A stretch of DNA of 63,511 bases, filler included, from Sphacelaria rigidula (taxonomy: Eukaryota), in assembly GCA_964200075.2 (NCBI GenBank). It is 7 parts of 7 records of this genome, joined end to end, with 100 filler letters (N's around TTAATTAATTAA, not from the genome) between each part and the next. Parts side by side here need not be neighbours in the genome. Positions count along the whole stretch, not along the records: positions 9,090 to 18,077 come from CAXNAA020009581.1; 6 more parts are not named here. One strand, given 5' to 3'. The notes beneath the pieces are model-generated. The model saw only the letters and a list, made by a program, of their open reading frames with translations, was not told where the DNA came from and did not search any database. Of the stretch, positions 8,990 to 36,351 are shown piece by piece (position 1 is the stretch's first letter; each line of letters starts with the position of its first letter). The position numbers were made by a program, and so were the translations under genes.

Positions 8990-9089
8990 NNNNNNNNNNN
9001 NNNNNNNNNNNNNNNNNNNNNNNNNNNNNNNNNTTAATTAATTAANNNNNNNNNNNNNNNNNNNNNNNNNNNNNNNNNNNNNNNNNNNN
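8990..9089. other. Artificial contig linker (44 N + TTAATTAATTAA + 44 N)
   Basis: 100-nt cassette with stops in all six frames, repeated at near-constant spacing. Confidence 0.97.
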
Positions 9090-9195
9090 AATTCCCAGCT
9101 TCTCGTCGTGCTCGGCTTTTCTCATTTTGATTTCCGTCAAGATTTTGCCTCCCCAAACCATGTACTTTGATGGGGGGGGGTATCGTAGAAAGCGT
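9090..9195 (-). mobile_element. Short gag-like fragment homologous to the ORF at 45439-47161
   Basis: gatttccgtcaagattttgcctccccaaaccatgtactttgatggggggggtatcgtagaaagcgtc closely matches gatttacgtgaagattttgcctcccaaaaccatgcacgttttggggggtgctatcgtagaaagtgtc at 45439-45505. Confidence 0.75.
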
Positions 9196-11073
9196 CTTCT
9201 GCACGAATGCCATTCACAGGCCTCGACTCATTTAGTAGCCATTAGGGCCTCCCAGATGTTGGAACGTTCTTATGGGTGGATTTGTATGGACCAGTGTTGT
9301 TGTTGGTGGGTGAGGCGTTGTCTTTTGTGTCAGGCGCGAAAAACGTCTCGTCAAACAGTTCGTTGGCCGATTGTTTCCATACCACTCCCAAACGGACCTG
9401 GTGAAGTAGTTTCGTGGGACTATTTTGGTCCTTTGCCCCTGACGGATAGTGGGAATAAGTATATTTTGTTGTTTACGGATATATTTAGTCGACATGCGGT
9501 GATGTACGCTGTCCCCGCCAGTAGCTATAACGCGGAAGGTACCGCCAACATTCTTGTATACATGTACATCCCACAGTGGGGTATGCCCAAACGCTTACTG
9601 TCTGACAACGGCCCGCATTTTTCTGGCAAACTTTCAGCCGCCGTCAGTGACCTTTTGGGTGCCCATCGCATTTTTACTAGTTCATATCACCCTTCCACCA
9701 ATGGTGGAACGGAACGAGTGAACCATACGATGGCACAGATGCTTGATGCTGTAGTAAATGAGAGACAGATGGACTGTGACCTGCACCTGCCCGTTGTCCA
9801 AATGTGCTACAACAATTCAGTCAATGCCGCTACGGGATTGTCGCCGAATGAAATTCATATTGGACGCATGCCTAGGTTAGCTTTAACGGTATTCGAACGC
9901 AAAAATATAGGCGGACATCAGAGTCGAGATCGTGATATTGTAGAGTATCATTTGTCGGTTAGCAATCGTCTTCGTCTTGCATATGAAGTGGTACGAGAAC
10001 AGAACTAAATCAATTTGGCCAAGTTTGCCAGGGCGAACTCGATGTTGGATGATGTGGTACATAACCGCCCGGTGTGGAAGGTAGGCCAATGGGTATGGGT
10101 GTCAAACGATGTGAAGACCATTAATCAAGAGGCTAGCTCGAAATCATCATCTTTGGACAAAGTGTTGAAGGCGAAACTATCCTTGAATTGGACTGGTCCT
10201 TGGGAAACTTTAGCTGTTGGTCCAAGCGCTACCGCACCCGACAAGAGTACGGTGGGAGCGAAACTTTCGCATTTAGATTTTCCCACGAATGAACCTGGTT
10301 TGAAACCGAAAAATCGCGTCTCGATGTTACGATGCAAACCGTGTATCCCCCCTGATGACTCCTCTTACATACCCAAACAACTGCCGCTAGGGCTCAGCTA
10401 GTATGTGCTGACCAAGTATGCGATCAAAACTCCGCCGTATGACATGACGGTCGAGGATGCGGACGCATCCCTGGAACGCGTTGAGGTAGATAGGATTTCG
10501 GGCCACCAACTGGTTCGCGGTCGTGGAGGTAAGATAGAGGTTATGTATCAAACACATTGGAAGGGTATCATGCGTGTTACATTGGAGCGTGAAGTTGATT
10601 TGCGTCATTTTCGTCGGGAGATATTGCTGTACTGGGTAGGAGATACCGTCCAGCACCGCCCGTTGAATAAGAGATATCGGTCGATGCGCAAGAAAGCTGC
10701 CGCTCGGGAACTGGCACGTGAACACTCAGCGCGGTTTGTTGTGACAGGATATAGCCTTCTTTCGCGTTCGCAATACATACAGTCTATTCACGGAAAACGC
10801 TTACCGAAGGGGGCGCACTTTTGGAAGAAGGTCTTGGATTCACTGTGGTGGTTGGGTAAAATTCATTTGGTCGATCCTGCATCTGACCACTCCTACTTTA
10901 TCCGTTTCCTTGATGACCCGAGCCCCCTCAAGATTCGCTTGGATGATGCGTACTACACCGAGGTGCCGACCGCTCGGAGGGGATCCTGGTGCCTCCAACG
11001 ACACGACCAAGGCGATCTCGACACAGCCGTTCTACGGAACACGGACACCGCTTGGGGTGCAGATGACTCATGA
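9196..11073 (+). pseudogene. pol: Ty3/Gypsy pol C-terminal part: integrase (HHCC, DDE, GPY/F) + chromodomain + PWWP-like extension; two in-frame stops
   Basis: One reading frame interrupted by stops at 10006-10008 and 10399-10401. Zn finger: CH..STH...CLLCQARK. Catalytic motifs: VSWDYFGPLP, SDNGPHF, NGGTERVN. GPY/F module: KLSLNWTGPW. Chromo-like: VEVDRI...YQTHWKG...TLEREVDL (10480-10635). Confidence 0.92.
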
Positions 11074-11464
11074 TGCCGCATCCGAGTCTGCTTCCCCATT
11101 CACCTTGCGTAGTGTACCACGTTCGAGTCGCTTGTCTTGTGCCGTAGCGTCGTTGAAAAACCATGTGTCCCCCCCCCCCCCTTCATTTTGTTTTCGTACT
11201 GATTAGCCCCGTACTTCTAATGGTTGATGTTGTGTTTTATATTTGGTATTTCGTCTTTTTTTTGTATTTTGTATTTTTTCTTGTGCTATGTTATGTTTTT
11301 TGTTGCTTTGGACCCTAATTTTGTGTTTCGGTTTTCTTTGCCTTTGCGTCATTTTGTTTTGTTTTGTTTTTATCTTTGTTTTTTGTTTGTTTTTCTTCTC
11401 TTCTTTTCTTCTCTTTTCGCCTCGTGCTTCGTGTTCGACTTTTTTTTGTGTTCAACGGGAGGTT

Positions 11465-11835
11465 TGTCCAGAAAGAAGGAAACCGTCGTTTATTGCAAAC
11501 ATCGATTTGGCCAAAGAGGCGTCTATTTGTTCAGCCGCTCTTTTAGGGTCACGGAGGAACAGTCAAATAGTCAGCCTCCTTTTTATTATTTCAGTCGCTG
11601 TTCGAGGTTCACGGTGGAACAATTGAATAGTCAGCCCCAAGCGTTCACTCTGCGGGAAAGTCCACGGAGTGTCAAAACAAGGAGACGCAAATCAGCGTAG
11701 GTTGGAGACACAAAAGGTGGACAGAGAGAGCATAGAAGGAGTTGGGCTAGTTCGACAGGAGCCAGCAAGTTTTATCGATTAGGTGCGCCTTTTGATCGGT
11801 TAGGTGCGCAAGCTAACAAGTTTTATCGATTAGGT
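11465..11835 (+). mobile_element. Putative 3' LTR of the upstream Gypsy element (end uncertain)
   Basis: After a T-rich 3' UTR and purine-rich 'gggaggtt' the sequence starts TGTCCA. Candidate ends are TGGACA (11718-11723) or GACA (11757). Internal short direct repeats are present. No partner LTR in the contig. Confidence 0.4.
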
Positions 11836-12049
11836 GTGAAGGAGGCGGGGCTGCGCAGGGGGCCCAGTTTCCGGGCGTGGCGCGTGGGCATCTACGCGCT
11901 TGAAAAGGCGGAAGGCGGCGGGGCTGCGCAGTGCGCAGCTTCCTGGCGTGGAGCTATCACATATACCGGTATGTCTGGTCACTGTGGTATATCTGTACGC
12001 ACTGTGAAACAGATTGCCAGCTATTGGGGAGCAGATACTGTCGAAAGTA

Positions 12050-13526
12050 AAGTTGCACGATTTTCTGGCTCCATCGCAGACATCTGTGTTTTGCCGTCCA
12101 AATCATCCCGAGCTGTCGAGTTGTGCTGGCTCAATCGCACACGTTTGTGCATTGCCGATTCCGGATCATCCCAGAGCTGTCGAGTTTGTTCGAAGTGCAG
12201 AAAACCTACTCACATGTTGAATGTTTTCTGACTCACTCACACACAGGTGTGTGTATTGCCGCTCTGGACCATCCCGAAGTTGTCGAGTTTTATCGAAGTG
12301 CACAAACCCATCGTGCTGAACCAACCTCTGCAGGACATCCGAGAGGTTGCCGTCTGGTCAAATAGCGAGTTGCACATACTTTTCTCGAGTTTGTTGCACA
12401 TACGCTTCGCGACCCGGGCTGCCAAAAATGTTTTCGGGTTGCAGTAAAAAATGAGTTCCAAACATTGCAGCAGGCTTCTGACTCAATTGCACTGTGTGAT
12501 TGCCGTTTCGATTACCTATCGAAACTGTCGAGTAGTCTTCGAAGGGCAGAAGTCTGCGTAAAGAAATGCCTATGCTGAACCAATCTCTCAGGGAAATTCA
12601 CAGGAGGTTGCCGTCTAGTCGGTTAGCGTTGCACACGTCAATAGCTTGTCTGCACATACGCTACTCGACCCGGGCTGCCGATTTCGGGTTGCAGCAATAC
12701 AATGAGCTCCAACACATTTCGACCGGCTTCTGACTCAATTGCACGTGTGGTTGCCGTTTCGATTACCTATCGGAGCTGTCGAGTCGTCTTCGAAGTGCAG
12801 AAGCCTGTGTAGCGAAAAACAAAAATGCTGAACAATCCTCTCACGGAATTTCGTGGGAGGTTGCCGTCTGGTCAACAGCGTTGCACATATGCACACTCTC
12901 TGACCGGGCTGTCGGGAATTTCCGAGTTGCAGCAGTCAAAAAGCCCCAAAATTCAGCAGGCTTCTGGCTCGATTGTCATGTGCAATTGCCGTTTCGATTG
13001 TATATCGGAACTGTCGAGTCATCTTCGAAGTGCAGAAGTCTGCGGGCCAAATGCCTACGCTGAACCAACCTCCTACGGAAATCCACGGGAGTTTGCCCTC
13101 TGGTCAATTAGCGGATGGTGCAAACGCTTCTTGATTCAAAGCGCCAAAATACTTCGGGAGACAGCATAATATATATATATATATATATATCAGTTAAAAC
13201 ATTGAATCAATCGCACCCAGAGGTGGTCGCCGTTGCGATTGTAGTGCCACTGTCGAGTTCTGTTCTTCTTACAAGTACAGAAGCCTATGAATGTCGCTGA
13301 ATCAACATCATACGATGTTGCCGTTTCATCCCGGATGTTCGATTACTTACCGGTGCTGTCAGTCGTCTTCGAAGTGCTGAAACCGGTGTAAAAAACAAAA
13401 TTATGCTGGACCAAATCTCTCACGGAAATCCACGAGAGATTGCCGTCTGGTCAGTAGCGGTGCACGTGTGTACGCTCCGTGGCCCGGGCTGTCGAAAACG
13501 TTTCGAGTTGCAGCAAACAATATGTT

Positions 13527-13830: not shown

Positions 13831-14021
13831 ATGGACGCTTGGTGTGTCCGCGATGTAGAGCGTGTGTGTGATCGTCGGTCAAATATCGAATCCGTCGGCA
13901 CAAGTGTTCTCTGTTTATATATGTATGTATACATATATTTTCCCGCGGGGGAGGGGGGGGCATGACGGAAATGGCGTGATCGGTAAAAAGCCATCGATCC
14001 AAACGCCGGCGAGCAAAAAAA

Positions 14022-14029
<8 letters not shown>

Positions 14030-14098
<69 letters not shown>
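14030..14098. repeat. (CA)n microsatellite
   Basis: About 34 CA units. Confidence 0.97.
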
Positions 14099-14099
<1 letters not shown>

Positions 14100-14355
14100 C
14101 AATGACACATCTCGACAGCTGATTTCTCCAGCTTGCGATAGGAATACGAGGCGTGTCTACGAGTAAGGTTAGCGGGGCTACTGTCCAAACTATCCACGAA
14201 AGTTTGACGATGCGTTTCCACCTGGGCGTGATGCTCGCATGTGCTTGAAACCCGAACACCAGTGGCCGCCGCTTATTGATATTCGTCGCTAAACTTTTGT
14301 TTATCCCATATTGGCCCATGTCCGCATGACCCGCCATATTTTTTCTCTACATTAG

Positions 14356-15819
14356 ATGCCTGCAGCGACGAGGTCGTCGACTGAGGGCACTCCACGGGGG
14401 CACGGCTGCGGGGGCGCCCGTACTACACGGCGCGCGCCCGGTAGATCGGGGTCGACTGGGGGCACTCCACGGGGGGCGCGGCCGCGGGGGCGCCCGCACT
14501 ACCCGGCGCGCGCCCGGTAGATCGAGGTCGGGGCGTGCACCACCCAGGGCGCGGTCGGCTGCACTTCTACGCGGGGAGGGTCCGCTCACGGCAGCCGAGG
14601 CAGCCGCGTTGTGGGCGCGGCTCGAGGAGATGCAAGCCGAGCGCGATGCGGCCGCAGTGGAACGCGACGAGGCCCGTGGCACGGTTCAACAGCTTCAGGC
14701 CCTGGAGGCAGATCGCGCCGCGGCAGAGCCACCAGCGACGCCAGGGGACCGCCGTCGCGAGAACGAGGATGTTGATGCTGGCGAAGGACGGCCTATGGTC
14801 CACGGTTTGACTCAGCCGCGTGTTTCAATCGCGTCGACCTCGCACGTCCAACAGGCTCGTGCGAAAGAAAGCATAAAAGCGTGGTACAACCCGACAATGA
14901 TGAAGTTGTGGGTTTTGATAGGGGAGCGTTCGACCGTCAGCGGGTTGAAGACGACGGAGATGCAAGCGGTGTTGCATGAGATCGTCAAAGTTACCCCCGC
15001 CGTCATGGAACAACTAAACTCCATGAGTGGTTTTCACGTGTGGCTGTATATGGTGGAGAACGACGACCCACGCGTCAGCAGCACGTCGCTGTACGACCAC
15101 CTGGAGATACCGATCGAGGCCATCATGACGCTCCTCTCCCTGGGTATCGAGTCGGACGACGGGTGCGTCCGTCTGGAGATTCTTCGCGAAGTCATGGAGG
15201 AGGGTGCTACGCTGTTGCGGGCACACTGCCGCAAATGGCCCGCCAAGATGTTGGACCCGGAGGTAAGCGCCATGCTGGAGTCCCTCGTTGATGATGACCT
15301 GGGTCGGTGATCTTCGAGCCTGTTTACTAGCGCCGTCGCATTCCAGCGGCAGCACCCAACGCCTCGAAATATCGAGGACATGCCTCCGGTGGTGACGCCG
15401 CAGTGGACTTTCCTGCGCAACTCTATTGATAGCGGGGGACTTCGGGGCATCCGCATCCGCACCTCTTCCCTACTGTTGCCGACCAAGCGTTCCGCCTCGG
15501 AAATAACCAAATTCGTGACCGATACTGCTTCGTGGAGATGAAGGAAGGAGTATGCCGTCGCCGGAACTGCCCATGGGAGCACAACAAGAAAGCAAACCGT
15601 CGATCCAGCAACGGGGGCGACGGTCCTCGAGCTAGCGGCGGGGGAGGCGGCGGCGGTGGCAATGGTCGCGCCGATGGCACTGGTCGCGCCGGTGGCGGCG
15701 ACTTGGAGACCGGGGGAACCAACAACCGCCCCAGCAACCAGAGCGCCGGGGGCGTCACTGGTGGACGCGGTTATCGCGGTGGGGGCGGGGGCGGCGGCGG
15801 TGGTGGGGGCCGAAACTAG
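14356..15819 (+). pseudogene. gag: ORF1/gag of a Ngaro-like tyrosine-recombinase retrotransposon (frameshifts and a stop)
   Basis: ATG at 14356, a duplicated ~73-bp unit, coiled coil (LEEMQAERDAAAVERDEARGTVQQLQALE) and a TGA at 15308-15310. After a frameshift there is a CCCH finger C-FVEMKEGV-C-RRRN-C-PWE-H (~15525-15582) and a Gly/RGG tail, directly followed by a DIRS/Ngaro-type RT start. Confidence 0.65.
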
Positions 15820-15873
15820 GGGTGCGGGCCTCGCCTCGAGGCAGGGACAACCTCGGACCAGCACGCGGTTTCC

Positions 15874-16443
15874 GTGGAAGGCAAGCAGGCGGGAGGACCG
15901 AGGTCGGCGTTGAGCGAGCAACAAGGTGTGGCTGGGGATATGGAAGAATGTGCGGTAGCGCTAAAACGGTTAGCGCGCTCAGCCGATTCTCAATCAACCT
16001 ATACAGCACTCCATAATGTAGCAGCAAAAAGCCAACGTTTCTTGAAAGACAAAAGTGGGTCGTTTAGCAGTATGCTTGAAACTCTGACTGTATTGCCCGT
16101 TCCCCGCGTTGATGTATCTCTGATTCGGCGTTGCTTTGGCGAAGTGAAAGAGTTTCCCGACATAGATCTGCTGGTGCAGATTGTCAGTATCGGGGCACCG
16201 GTTGCGGTATGTGGGCGGAGAGATTTGGTTGCGGCGCTTCAATATGGAAACCATAATTCTGTCAGACCATATTCTTTGGAAATTTTGGCAAAAATTGTGG
16301 AGGGTGTGTTACTTGGGAGAGCATTTGTTTTTCCACGTCACGCAGCTGCTGCTATTCCAGGTCTTCGCGAATCACCTTTGATGGTCGCTGTCTCCCCGTC
16401 AAAGGTTTGCATTTGTCATGATTTGTCTAACGCTGTGTCTAGG
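15874..16443 (+). pseudogene. pol: Truncated reverse transcriptase N-terminus, DIRS/Ngaro type
   Basis: YGNHNSV...ILAKIVEGVLLGRAFVFP...ESPLMVAVSPSKVCICHDLS fits the N-H-S...GR...SPL.V..K.R.IHDLS pattern of YR-retrotransposon RTs. Cut at ~16444 by an insertion. Confidence 0.75.
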
Positions 16444-18077: not shown

Positions 18078-18177
18078 NNNNNNNNNNNNNNNNNNNNNNN
18101 NNNNNNNNNNNNNNNNNNNNNTTAATTAATTAANNNNNNNNNNNNNNNNNNNNNNNNNNNNNNNNNNNNNNNNNNNN
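18078..18177. other. Artificial contig linker
   Basis: 44 N + TTAATTAATTAA + 44 N. Confidence 0.97.
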
Positions 18178-27164: not shown

Positions 27165-27264
27165 NNNNNNNNNNNNNNNNNNNNNNNNNNNNNNNNNNNN
27201 NNNNNNNNTTAATTAATTAANNNNNNNNNNNNNNNNNNNNNNNNNNNNNNNNNNNNNNNNNNNN
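27165..27264. other. Artificial contig linker
   Basis: 44 N + TTAATTAATTAA + 44 N. Confidence 0.97.
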
Positions 27265-30705: not shown

Positions 30706-33700
30706 GTGCAGGTGGGATCGATTTCTACAGTGTCGAACACTGCGCCGGCGCCGGTGGTGGCGCCGGTGGCGACACCTGCAGCAGCGCCAGGCGTGACGCC
30801 TGCTGATGCGCTGGTCGGAGTTTCGCCAAACTCTTGGTCTGCTGGCTGGGAGTCGTACCCGCCGGCGGTGCCGTTTGAACCTGCCGGAGCGTCTTTGCCT
30901 CCGCAGCTTGCGCAGCCGTGGCGTCAAGTGAGATTAGCGGTGCATCGGTCGGCGCATGAAGTGCCATTGGAGTTTGCGGACAAATACGTTCGTGCGGAGC
31001 TATGTATTTCAAATCAACGGGAGCGTGGAGCCATTGCGGTTCGGGCTGTGTTGGACTCTGCGGCCCACTTCACGAGTCTGTCGGTGCAGACTGTAAAGAT
31101 GTTGGAGCGTCTTCTCCCGGGTGTGGCGCTGCGCATCCCGTTTTCACTCGGGGCGCGGCAGGCCTTTACCGCGTCGGGTCAGCATGTTTCCGTCACGGAG
31201 CGTACTGTTCCGCTGCAGCTGGCTTTCACGACTGCCTGGGGGCCGGCGCCGTTGCCTCAGATCTCGTTTGCGATCATGTCGGGGTCGGATGGCGTCATTA
31301 TTCTGTGGTTGCCGACGCTCCAGGATCTTGAAGTCGATCCATATGCGCGGCTGTGGGACTCCATCAAGACGCAAATGTCTCCGCCTGGTCCGCACGTGGA
31401 GACGCTCACCGTTTTGGGCAGTCGTTGCGTGAGGTTGTTGGTGGATGCTTTGCAGGAGGCTGGGGGGCAGGTGACCGAGGAGCGGGATGATGCGGTGGAA
31501 CGCTTGGTGGAGCACGACCCGGAGATGATTATGGATCCGGCGGAAGAGGAGTCCGCTCGGGAAGGTCGCGCTGGAGGTAAGCGTGACGGATGCTGTGCCG
31601 AAAGGCCGCAGCGTCTCAGAAGCGGAGCGCCTGCGCGGCATCTTACATCTCCGCGTCGACGCGTTTCGTCGTGCGCTGGGGGATGATTCTCCTGCGCGCG
31701 TGGAGCCCATGCGTGTTCAGATAAAACCTGGGGCGTCCACGGTGAAGAGGACGAAGCCGCGGCGGTACGATCCGGTGAAGTCCAGTTGGTTGGCGTCGTG
31801 CATGGCGGCTCTTTTGGCGCTCGGGTTGGTGTTCCGGAACTTGCAGGCAGTGTGGTCCCGTCCGGCTATGGCGGTTCCGAAGGACATGTTTCGCCTGGTA
31901 AGCGACTACAAGGCTGTGAATGAGTAGGTTGAGAAGTCGGCAGGTGTGGTGCCCAACTAAGAGTCAGACATGCGTGATTTGTTGAGTGCTCGTTTTCTTG
32001 GCAAGTTGGACCTCCTCCAACGTTACTGGTAGATGCCATTGGCGGAGGAGGTGTAGAAGATTTTCACAGTCACGACTCCGTTTGGCTTATTTACCCCGTA
32101 GCGAGTACCGCAAGGCGTGCTGAATGCCACAACATATTTTCAAGGCATCATGACAGAACTTCTCTGCTACTTAAAATGCAAGATATGGGTGGATGATGTG
32201 TTTTTTTTCGCGGACACGGAAGACGAACTTTTAGATACGCTTGATACTCTTTTGGCTCGCTCAGAGAGTGTTGGTTTATTTGCGGCTGCGCACAAGTGTA
32301 CCTTTTCCGCTAGCGAACTCGTGTGGTGTGGGAAAGTGTTCTAACTCGGACGCGCATCTCATGACCCTGTCAGATTGCAAGGCTTGACTGACATGCGGCG
32401 CCCGGAGACGGCCGCAGAGCTCATGCAAATCGCTCAGGCCGTGAATTGGCTGCGCACCTCGTTGCCGCGTATGGCTAAAATTGTAGCTCCCTTACGTTTC
32501 TTCCTCGAAGAACTCGTGGCGGGTGCTGCGAGGCGGACCAAGCGTATGGCGAAAAACCGCGCTATTCCGCCTGCATCCTGGACGGAGGGCAGGCTGCTGG
32601 CGTGGGCGGCAGCGAAGGATCTAGTGGCTCATGCCGTGACGCTGTTCCATCCTCGTCCTGACTGTTAGGTGTTGATGTTTCCGGATGTATCTGAGTGCCA
32701 TTGGGGTAGTTTTGTCACGCAGGTGCCTGAAGCTGAAATACAACGACGCTTGCCGGTCGAGGATATGACGCATGAACCGCTGGCTTTCTTCAGTGGTAGT
32801 TTCAAGGGCTCGGAGTTGCGTTGGGCCACAGTTGACAACGAAACTTTTGCTATTGTGATAATTTTTCGTCGTTTGGAGCATCTTTTGTAGGATGGGGTGC
32901 AAATGTTTACGGACCACCGAAATCTCGTGTTTATATTCAACCCGGAAGCGTGCGTTACGTTTGTGTCGAACGCGTTGGGACAACGTTGGGAGGGTTGGAA
33001 ATGTGTTCTTGCTCAGTATCGTTACTCGATTTGCCATTTTCCGGGTGACCGTAACACGTGGGGTTACTTGCTTTCGCGTTGGGTGAATATTCCGACTTTG
33101 CCTGTGCGCACTGTGGCTGTGTATGGTCCGTGTGAACCTGATGACTCGATGCCGTCCAAATCTTTTGTCCGCCAAGCCCGACGGAAAGAACTTGAGGACA
33201 AAGATGCGGATGTACAATCTTTCGAGTCGGACGTTGGTACTGCTGTCTTGGACAATGAAGGTATGTTTCGTGTGCATGTGCGTGACCGAAGCGTTTTGTG
33301 GATTCCGAGTTCTGACAAGCAGTTGCTGGTACGTCTGATGATTTGCGCCCACATGCGCGACGCCGGGTATCGTGGTGTGGCTGCGACGCTCGTGCGCTTG
33401 CAAGAGTTTTGTGTCTGGCAGGGGGTAGAAATCATGCGCGCGAATGCCCGCCAGTGTCTTCACTGTGTTGACTCGAGGGCGGGCGATGTTGTTCCCCACC
33501 CGCTCGGTGAAACGGCCCATGGGACCATGCCGAACGAAGTCGTTCATTTTGGCTCATTGTACGTGGGCGAGAGTGGCATGATTTGAGCGACTTCGTTTCT
33601 CTGGAACCAGTAGCAGTGTGTACTGCTGAATCGACTGCTGCATCTTTGCTGAATTGGCTCGAAGCTTTGGGGCTGCCGCGTGTGAGGGTTAGTGATACCG

Positions 33701-34627
33701 CCACGCATTTCAAGAATGCGATCTCGGCCCGACAGCGAGAGGCTTTGCACGTTGGTAATCAGTTTACGGTGGCGTATTCTCCGTGGTCTAGCGGCAAGTG
33801 CGAACGCATGGTCAAGGAAGTAGTTCGTGGTCTTCGCTCTATTTTTCTCGAGCAGCGCGAAGCGGTTTTCGAGTGGGTGGACGTGTTGCCTGCGGTGCAA
33901 CGGGCGCTCAGTACAGCGTATCATCGTTGTCACGATAGTACACCGTACCACGTGATGTTTGGTTGTGTTCCTCGGACGTGTTTCTCGATATTTGCGTCTT
34001 CGGCGGGGGAGTGGAATTGTGATGTCTTGTATGATAATCAAATTAAGCGTGCATTGCAAGGAGTCTTGGACTTGCAAGAACGTTTCCACGTTCAAGTGCA
34101 GGAGCGTGTTGCCGCTGAACGTGCGCGTAGACGTGAGGGGTCCTCGTCGGGGCTGGAACTGCCGAGGTTTGAGGTAGGCGACCGTGTCTTGTATGCATGT
34201 GTGCGTTGTCTGGGCGTTACGCTCAAGTTGATGACGACGTGGACCGTGGAGAGTGGTTGGTGCTCACCACCCGTTTGAGATCCAGAATATTGTTTCGGGT
34301 CGTGTTTAGACCGCCCATGTAGCTCGTTTGCGTTTTTATGCAGACTCATAGCTTAATGTTACAGCTGACGTCAGGGAGGTGTTCCAGCACGCTTTCAATA
34401 AGGGGCAACTTCAAATGGATGGTATTGTCCGAGAGGCAGAAGCAGACGATCGTTTGTTGATCATGATGGTCGACTGGGTTGGTTTCGAAGTGGAGGAGCG
34501 TACATGGGAGACTTTCAAGGATATTTTTGAGGCCGCTTCGGAATTTCTCACGAAAGAGTTGCGTAAATTGCACGTGACTCGTGCCGTTGCTGCTCGCATG
34601 ACGCGTGAGTTTGGTATTCAGTTGTGA
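30706..34627 (+). pseudogene. pol: pol: aspartic protease, RT, RNase H, integrase, chromodomain; multiple stops and frameshifts
   Basis: PR: AVLDSAAHFTS. RT: FRLVSDYKAVN, GKLDLLQRYW, PQGVLNA, KIWVDDVFF. RH: FPDVS, FTDHRNL, LLSRW. IN: AHMRDAGYRG..CLHC, VSDTATHF, SGKCERM. Chromo: VDWVGFEVEERTWETFKDI (34379-34627). Confidence 0.93.
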
Positions 34628-34896
34628 CTTGCTCATCGTTTTGGCGTTTTTTATGTGTCAAGCTTGTTGCTCGATTTTCGTCCGACGTGCTCTTGGGATG
34701 CTGTGACGAAATTACGCTGTTACGTTGAGTTGATAGTGACGAATCTGTTGGTAGGAATGATCAGGATAATGACCGGGGAGACGAGGATTCCAGAGGATTT
34801 GGGGAGGATTCTGGATAGTGACCGGGGACACTGGGATGATACCCTGCGGGTCTAGGAGGCTGTACCTACAAGGGCACTCCAAATAATATGAGATGT

Positions 34897-36251: not shown

Positions 36252-36351
36252 NNNNNNNNNNNNNNNNNNNNNNNNNNNNNNNNNNNNNNNNNNNNTTAAT
36301 TAATTAANNNNNNNNNNNNNNNNNNNNNNNNNNNNNNNNNNNNNNNNNNNN
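36252..36351. other. Artificial contig linker
   Basis: 44 N + TTAATTAATTAA + 44 N. Confidence 0.97.

Follow-up and report, generated by a model that had tools for sequence, protein, structure and literature searches.

A predicted Tudor-like barrel behind the chromodomain of a brown-alga Gypsy integrase

To our knowledge, the routes by which retrotransposons are targeted are few, namely an integrase-borne chromodomain or tethering by a host factor, LEDGF/p75 being an example. A locus from the brown alga Sphacelaria rigidula raises the question of whether an integrase can carry a second reader-type domain behind its chromodomain. The stretch analysed here (63,511 nucleotides of assembly GCA_964200075.2, referred to as the window) consists of pieces of about 9 kb, and neighbouring pieces are not necessarily adjacent in the genome. 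One of these pieces holds the 3' half of pol of a decayed Ty3/Gypsy retrotransposon of the long terminal repeat (LTR) type from a brown alga. An earlier interpretation of this locus (the sequence-only reading) had assigned two putative histone readers, a chromodomain and a PWWP-like domain, to the end of the integrase. The analysis described below indicates that the architecture of this family is real, conserved and apparently unreported, and that the second domain is predicted to be a Tudor-like barrel of the Royal family.

The integrase tail and its relatives

The last segment of the integrase (10402-11070, plus strand) encodes a tail of 223 amino acids (aa) that ends at a TGA stop codon (11071-11073). 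A chromodomain fold occupies 10480..10638 (tail residues 27-79). It is followed by 145 in-frame residues up to the stop, among them LPKGAHFWKKVLDSLWWLGKI, which begins at 10801, and SYFIRFLDDP, which ends at 10920. The GPY/F module, the chromo-like segment and the further residues (about 145) described by the sequence-only reading were all present in frame +1.

Relatives of the tail were readily found. The 223-aa sequence matched nine proteins at E values of 0.01 or below (308 candidates), the best being a Sphacelaria rigidula protein with 88% identity (E = 3.9e-128), as well as three longer proteins (1829 candidates) with 50–73% identity, among them an integrase of 779 aa that contains both H2C2 and rve domains. 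The tail is in frame in all of these nine plus three matched proteins and is conserved among relatives down to about 30% identity. A profile made from the tail only (A3, 129 aa) matched 50 longer proteins at E ≤ 0.001 among 8000 candidates scored. Half of them (25/50) contain the rve domain (PF00665). Several of the 50 are complete polyproteins comprising RVT_1, RNase H, H2C2 and rve. Reverse transcriptase (RT) and RNase H lie upstream in the same polyprotein in the relatives P0171, P0159, P0160, P0176 and P0193; the window copy is cut at 9090. Because a larger profile of 448 positions (A1) includes the C-terminal part of the integrase, the 3150 matches that it gave at E ≤ 0.001 do not count as tail-specific. 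Among the 150 matches listed from that search, all with E < 1e-38, distant relatives were not reached.

Because the tail is conserved and in frame in relatives, it can be regarded as real coding sequence, and a chance open reading frame or non-coding read-through is ruled out by conservation over dozens of proteins. The earlier claim that the segment is conserved and in frame is borne out in the relatives by alignments and profile searches, the window copy itself being a pseudogene. Across a set of 24 long relatives, pairwise identity averages 0.71 in the rve core, 0.65 in the chromodomain, 0.57 in the barrel, 0.48 in the connector between the two domains and 0.38 at the C-terminal end. Judged from these alignments, the regional pattern is that of a folded, constrained domain rather than a drifting extension. 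Within the barrel, W141, W149, W150, G152, Y165, F169, D171, D172, P173, G174, P175, L180, Y185, W196, C197 and L198 are held in approximately 25–32 of 30–34 sequences of the 35-sequence alignment (A2).

The co-occurrence of the two domains was scored with local profiles in 204 proteins, a sample that is biased because it was gathered with profiles that include the chromodomain and barrel regions. Both domains were matched in 68 proteins and the chromodomain only in 60, of which just two (P0064 and P0134) have at least 120 residues beyond the chromodomain. In these two the connector is retained and similarity is lost afterwards, as expected from a frameshift. The barrel only was matched in 19 proteins. 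Nine of the 19 have more than 180 residues ahead of the barrel, and these resemble copies with frameshifts, gene models from which parts of pol are missing, or other proteins.

Several proteins with unusual layouts were also observed. P0183 (828 aa) and P0182 (612 aa) end in the pre-barrel element and the Tudor-like barrel, have neither integrase nor chromodomain, and are without a Pfam match; their N-terminal half is coiled-coil-like, and they contain a long stretch rich in Arg and Ser. They could represent an element that is recombinant or non-autonomous, a protein resembling gag, or a host gene with an acquired domain. In P0168 (373 aa, a EukProt gene model) TIMP and WSC domains precede the connector and barrel, and this is probably a gene model running into a transposon fragment. 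In P0189 (585 aa) the integrase C-terminal region is joined straight to the pre-barrel element, with no chromodomain or long helix, which reflects a derivative that arose by deletion or else an intron prediction. A more distant relative, P0048 (352 aa), has a GPF region and a chromo-like segment followed by a different barrel-like stretch, cut at its end, with the pattern G-A-H-I-F ... G-W-Q-L-G-V-I ... Y-N-V-N-F-V-D. Judging from this protein, the succession of two domains may predate the present family.

The family is abundant, and intact polyproteins are found in Ectocarpus. Ectocarpus sp. CCAP 1310/34 is the named source of four of the 50 matches to the tail-only profile. Going by source names, the family occurs in at least two brown-alga orders, an assignment that rests on few named relatives.

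The window copy itself is a decayed copy, or pseudogene. Its piece begins at 9090, and the spacer at 8990-9089 cuts the 5' end of the integrase. Frame +1 of 9091-11073 gives a single protein reading that is broken by two in-frame stops. The N-terminal and catalytic part (9091..10005, plus strand) carries an H2C2 domain (approximately 9187-9348; PF17921, E = 4.7e-06, 27.1 bits against a gathering cut-off of 25.5, residues 33-86) and an rve core (approximately 9391-9693; PF00665, E = 1.2e-09, 38.7 bits against a gathering cut-off of 32.6, residues 101-201). No Pfam family was above threshold 3' of 10005 in this frame up to 11073. The first stop, TAA, lies within the integrase at 10006..10008 and is followed by the integrase C-terminal region (10009..10398), which has no Pfam match and contains a motif of the GPY/F type, NWTGPW, whose GPW lies at 10195-10203. 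The GPY/F module was read by eye, Pfam having no model for it; its column is GPW or GPF in the aligned relatives. The second stop, TAG, lies at 10399..10401, directly upstream of the chromo-like domain, where relatives read through. The window copy also differs at several positions that are conserved in the family, for example the Trp in strand three of the chromodomain and the Tyr in strand one of the barrel. The two stops and these substitutions together mean that this copy cannot work. The stops, the substitutions and the 5' cut at the spacer had gone unmentioned in the sequence-only reading.

Folds and aromatic cages of the two C-terminal domains

The 223-aa tail was modelled with AlphaFold2 (AF2) from alignment A2, giving a mean predicted local distance difference test score (pLDDT) of 86.4 and a predicted template modelling score (pTM) of 0.76. 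The chromodomain was modelled with strands at residues 29-39, 45-53 and 60-63 and a helix at 64-79 (pLDDT 87–96). VIA-align was run against 48,161 chains, with residues 24-98 and 127-213 matched separately. For the chromodomain, the top rows were classical chromodomains: Chp1 (Z 7.2, root-mean-square deviation (rmsd) 1.7, 53 of 55 residues aligned), dHP1 (Z 6.8, rmsd 1.6) and Polycomb (Z 6.1, rmsd 1.5). When the 448-position profile was compared with PDB sequences, the only rows were Ty3 (E = 0.2) and the MPP8 chromodomain (E = 0.64–0.69). The chromodomain cage is formed by Y24, W45 and Y48 in HP1 numbering (PMC3350952). The W45 equivalent is kept, as W53 in 19 of 22 sequences (MPP8 alignment and family column counts), and the chromo-box Y-x-T-H-W-K-G is retained.

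The connector (10669..10788) was modelled as a long helix (tail residues 90-107), after which a short strand plus helix (117-129) precede the barrel. Its pLDDT is 90–96, and relatives share the motif MRKGAAxRELAR, in which R96, A100, R102, E103 and R106 are near-invariant.

The second domain (10801..11004, tail residues 134-201) was modelled as a five-stranded barrel with strands at 139-143, 149-157, 164-169, 172-179 and 196-201 (pLDDT 92–96 in the 223-aa model). Folded alone (101 aa, alignment A4), it gave the same elements, with a mean pLDDT of 89.5 and a pTM of 0.80. Beyond the barrel there is one short helix (206-209; 95-100 in the barrel-only model), after which confidence drops, and pLDDT falls to 45–63 in the weakly conserved C-terminal end (11005..11073, TGA included). 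In both Foldseek searches the top rows were the Tudor domains of PHF1, PHF19 and MTF2, which read H3K36me3, together with that of Drosophila Pcl (probability 1.0, E = 6e-3 to 6e-2), with an rmsd of about 2 Å over 47–52 columns and 23–33% identity (26–33% for PHF1, PHF19 and MTF2). The tail-only profile, compared with PDB sequences, gave the PHF19 Tudor domain as the three best rows (E = 0.029–0.042), and an LWWLGKI-aligned block and an F-x-D block are common to the barrel and PHF19. In VIA-align, residues 127-213 of the 223-aa model matched Spindlin, PWWP, RDM15, PHF20L1, PHF19, TDRD3, LBR and Agenet chains at Z 5.0–5.4. The barrel-only model matched Tudor, PWWP, Spindlin and Agenet chains at Z 4.5–5.7. 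Over the VIA-align comparisons, PHF19 gave Z 5.1–5.2 (rmsd 2.1–2.2). The structure and sequence signals, obtained independently of each other, agree on the Polycomb-like (PCL) Tudor domains, though no single score is strong or reaches the usual cut-offs. The second domain is, according to these models, a Tudor-like barrel of the Royal family.

The earlier PWWP-like assignment can be divided accordingly. A Royal-family barrel is predicted with high confidence at this position; PWWP is not the best label for it, and the domain is better described as Tudor-like because its nearest neighbours by fold and profile are the Tudor domains of PHF1, PHF19 and MTF2. The likeness to the PWWP consensus is partial, in that FWYK and LWWL resemble VWAK and PWWP, but the motif L-W-W-L (148-151; L151 in 27 of 34 sequences) has no flanking proline, and a single short helix is modelled after the barrel before confidence falls. 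PF00855 (PWWP) matched one of nine members at E = 0.12, none at threshold, and none of 35 at E ≤ 0.1. The PWWP chain 6kco was level with the Tudor domains in VIA-align (Z 5.3–5.5).

The cage of the PHF1 Tudor domain, W41/Y47/F65/F71, corresponds to W50/Y56/F74/Y80 of PHF19, and the PHF1 mutants W41A, Y47A and F65A are reported to lack binding (PMC7492083). In the HMMER alignment, Y56 is aligned with W150 (aromatic Trp in 30 of 34 sequences by column counts), F74 with F169 (31 of 34) and D76 with D171, so that the acidic residue after the cage Phe is also conserved in the barrel.

Several observations weigh against the interpretation of the tail as a chromodomain followed by a Tudor-like reader. 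The top VIA-align rows of the barrel-only model belong to the translocation-signal domain (TSA) of bacterial TraI (Z 6.3–7.1), a match that also spans the pre-barrel strand and helix. The barrel scores of Z 4.5–5.7 are middling and perhaps reflect a common arrangement only, the fold class being a common small barrel, and the best Foldseek E value (6e-3) falls short of 1e-3. Pfam gave no above-threshold match for either C-terminal domain. PF00385 (Chromo) was without a match in the window copy at E ≤ 1 and remained below threshold in the five of 35 members that it matched at E ≤ 0.1 (best E = 0.0026, 18.1 bits against a cut-off of 25.1). In the chromodomain, 12 of 22 sequences have Leu and 6 have Ile at the Y48 equivalent, and the Y24 equivalent, which VIA-align ranges place probably at residue 27, is Val in 6, Leu in 5 and Phe in 2 of 17, leaving one of three aromatic cage positions. 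In the barrel, the W50 position is residue 144 (21 of 34 sequences have Ala there, the window Val) and the Y80 position is Pro175 (32 of 34), the latter extrapolated two residues past the aligned block, so that two of the four PHF19 aromatic positions are kept. An essential position of the barrel cage is lost, because W50 is the equivalent of PHF1 W41, whose W41A mutant lacks binding.

Other searches gave leads at most. No Pfam Tudor family matched in 35 members, and Agenet matched in three of the 35 (best E = 0.02). A single-sequence phmmer search of the tail against the PDB returned no match at E ≤ 10. In the ESM Atlas, the best score for the 129-aa tail was 0.85, and the rows for a KIF2A-like first domain, Spin/Ssty and Agenet were all below 0.9 and serve as leads only.

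Conservation of cage residues, which the sequence-only reading proposed as a check, is seen for W150 and F169, while the W50 and Y80 equivalents are non-aromatic. With one of three cage aromatics in the chromodomain, two of four in the barrel and the Trp equivalent to W41 lost, the claim of two histone readers is not established. It is important to note that near-invariant aromatics lie near the missing cage positions. W141, Y142 (on the same strand face as residue 144), W149 and Y165 could rebuild a pocket.

Candidate roles of the tandem

The integrase of this family continues past its chromodomain, in the order H2C2, rve core, GPY/F region, chromodomain-fold module, conserved helix and Tudor-like barrel. 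The tandem small barrels would tether the intasome to chromatin, and such tethering would bias the insertion sites of new copies. By analogy with other integrases, we consider it reasonably probable that the chromodomain-helix-barrel unit is a chromatin-targeting tether. If so, an integrase with two reader-type domains in series would show that transposons can assemble multi-part chromatin-targeting modules from host domains.

The PWWP domain of LEDGF/p75 is a Royal-family barrel that links HIV-1 integrase to marked chromatin, as part of a host protein bound in trans. The tandem unit may act in cis as this domain does in trans. The likeness is one of mechanism only: a Royal-family barrel would link integrase to chromatin in both cases, but here it lies within the integrase chain and is not a PWWP domain by motif or Pfam.

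The LEDGF/p75 analogy has been drawn for Ty3 in a preprint (bioRxiv 10.1101/2021.07.27.453949). Ty3 integrase resembles the present family in that its C-terminal domain (CTD) and vestigial chromodomain form a tandem small-barrel unit at the C-terminus that is used in targeting. It differs in that it targets TFIIIB and DNA rather than histones and is described without a Tudor-like third barrel. In chromoviruses, both MAGGY and plant elements, integrase and chromodomain are likewise fused, and group II members lack Y24, and usually Y48, while W45 and the chromo-box are kept (PMC3350952). In contrast to the present family, the chromodomain is at the integrase C-terminus and a second domain is not mentioned in the available text; group II chromodomains are also said there to be found only in plants. 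The MAGGY chromodomain recognises H3K9me2/3, and chromodomains direct the integration of MAGGY-type elements (PMC3350952).

Methyl-lysine reading by the chromodomain and barrel is a plausible putative function. The barrel, more than the cage-poor chromodomain, may contact the histone tail or nucleosome, and candidate ligands would be marks resembling H3K36me3, or H4K20me3 and H3K79me2, which are associated with repeats in brown algae. In Ectocarpus, H3K9me1/2/3 and H3K27me3 are reported to be absent, and repeats are reported to carry H3K79me2 and H4K20me3 (PMC12477816). With these H3K9 and H3K27 marks reported missing, there may be little in Ectocarpus for a chromodomain on its own to recognise; the cage-poor chromodomain may thus be left without a classical ligand, and contact may be made by the barrel. 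A Tudor-like domain could in this way supply another mark in brown algae. The stronger proposal is that the chromodomain and a Tudor domain of the Polycomb-like type form a true two-part methyl-lysine reader, which would steer insertion to a brown-alga chromatin state (H4K20me3- or H3K79me2-marked repeats, or H3K36me3) and would have evolved in a host without H3K9me and H3K27me3, which chromodomains usually bind. This proposal is doubtful; if true, it would describe the first transposon-encoded combinatorial histone reader. A direct test by insertion sites or peptide binding is possible, since Ectocarpus has a near-gapless genome and histone chromatin immunoprecipitation (ChIP) maps.

The barrel shares with the Tudor domains of PHF1, PHF19, MTF2 and Pcl the five strands and the fold and sequence similarity described above. 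It differs from them in its reduced cage and in the extra strand and helix that precede it. Those proteins are accessory to Polycomb repressive complex 2 (PRC2), whereas here the domain belongs to a transposon integrase in a group where Ectocarpus is reported without H3K27me3.

The best surviving alternative is that both barrels exist but do not read methyl-lysine, and that the tether acts through DNA or a host protein, independently of histones, as in Ty3. Both cages are incomplete, the Ty3 chromodomain contacts Brf1 and DNA within its tandem small-barrel unit with the CTD (bioRxiv 10.1101/2021.07.27.453949), the TraI domain that tops the barrel-only comparison is a non-histone domain, and DNA binding was reported in 2026 for the Tudor domain of PHF20L1 (PMC13285377). 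The nearest domains by Foldseek and profile are, however, the histone-reading PCL Tudor domains, conservation extends to two positions of the cage and to the acidic residue that follows its Phe, and the aromatics at 141, 142, 149 and 165 could compensate for the lost positions. On balance a histone-independent tether appears unlikely, though it deserves serious attention.

A further alternative is that the chromo-like domain is a chromoshadow-type dimerisation module for intasome assembly and that the barrel alone contacts chromatin. Retention of W45 with loss of Y24 and Y48 is the pattern of most shadow chromodomains (PMC3350952), and the HP1 and Chp2 chromoshadow domains came within one Z unit of true chromodomains in VIA-align, with Z 6.6 (rmsd 1.7) and Z 5.5. 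The same loss is nevertheless the pattern of plant group II retrotransposon chromodomains, which are described as retaining classical-type features (PMC3350952), the chromo-box is kept, and the top structural matches are classical chromodomains, all of which makes this alternative quite improbable. A homodimer prediction for tail residues 20-215 scored 0.00 in two runs made without controls or a family alignment, and it gives no verdict. The chromatin-targeting tether remains the preferred interpretation of the unit.

Published brown-alga lineages and other features of the window

The weakest alternative, that the architecture is already catalogued as the published Tudor-bearing Gypsy-10_Ec32 lineage, draws on the C-terminal Tudor domain of that element and its homologue in Tribonema but is very improbable, given that the Ectocarpus tail relatives P0171 and P0190 carry the NADAR domain assigned to the Gypsy-12_Ec32 lineage, that Gypsy-10_Ec32 is treated as 'the final lineage' and that the curation notes give Tudor for Gypsy-10_Ec32 only (PMC12477816).

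Four Gypsy lineages are described in Ectocarpus, three of them with putative C-terminal chromodomains; these lineages are stated to be unrelated to chromoviruses or Chronos (PMC12477816). Gypsy-10_Ec32 was called the first transposable element known with a Tudor domain, and the Gypsy-12_Ec32 lineage (lineage IV) is cited for a chromodomain and an N-terminal NADAR domain of the YbiA type (PMC12477816). Among the tail relatives, P0171 (Ectocarpus sp.) has an N-terminal NADAR domain (PF08719, E = 1.9e-40) followed by RT, RNase H, H2C2 and rve. NADAR is also listed for P0190; it was not found in P0159, P0160, P0176 or P0193, and the window copy is truncated at the N-terminus. Because its Ectocarpus relatives carry NADAR, the family is tentatively placed in the NADAR lineage, which was published as chromodomain-bearing. 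The window family most likely belongs to the NADAR lineage rather than the Tudor lineage, the published lineages being compared by description only.

The NADAR lineage is like the present family in the domain order seen in P0171. It is unlike it in being described without a barrel after the chromodomain, and the window copy is decayed and, by best named match, comes from another brown-alga order. Gypsy-10_Ec32 is likewise a brown-alga Gypsy integrase that ends in a domain of the Tudor superfamily, but it forms a separate lineage in the RT tree and is reported, in the available text, without a chromodomain or NADAR (PMC12477816); it is set apart here by description. A second domain after the chromodomain of the NADAR lineage is not mentioned in the text, supplementary legends or curation notes available for PMC12477816. 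One lineage annotated with a chromodomain only seems to carry a second, unrecognised domain.

No description of an integrase with a chromodomain and a Tudor-like barrel was found in the literature covered, which included the brown-alga centromere papers, the Chronos paper and a chromatin-evolution preprint in their available portions; the search is thin on subscription journals and the result provisional. The architecture, which the sequence-only reading did not recognise as described, is to that extent unreported, but a Tudor domain on a brown-alga Gypsy had already been published. Only the tandem arrangement looks new, because that Tudor-bearing integrase belongs to another lineage (PMC12477816). 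Reader domains fused to Gypsy integrases are already known, and it is the succession of chromodomain and Tudor-like barrel that looks new.

The window also contains a fragment of a second, unrelated and frameshifted Gypsy integrase (33511-34630, plus strand), with a chromo-like segment at approximately 34379-34560 in frame 34202. The rve domains of the two elements share only 26% identity. The contrast drawn earlier between the two elements was confirmed in that the second ends soon after its chromo-like segment, with a stop about 20 residues later, near 34630, in frame 34202; this fragment lies in another piece and is frameshifted. The pieces are joined by N44-TTAATTAATTAA-N44 spacers at 8990-9089, 18078-18177, 27165-27264, 36252-36351, 45339-45438 and 54426-54525, and elements are truncated at piece ends.

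In the case of the first element, a 3' LTR was not defined, since self-BLAST of 11074-13500 gave internal tandem repeats only. The pol stop is followed by a T-rich low-complexity stretch with short tandem repeats (11230-11450). After it comes a 251-bp tandem repeat in two copies with 81% identity at 12391-12887, and self-BLAST showed more diverged copies extending to about 13830. Further downstream, a GC-rich block spans 14001-16000 (GC 0.616, against approximately 0.45–0.50 in the surroundings), an (AC)38 microsatellite lies at 14022-14098, and a 76-bp GC-rich tandem repeat occupies 14376-14530.

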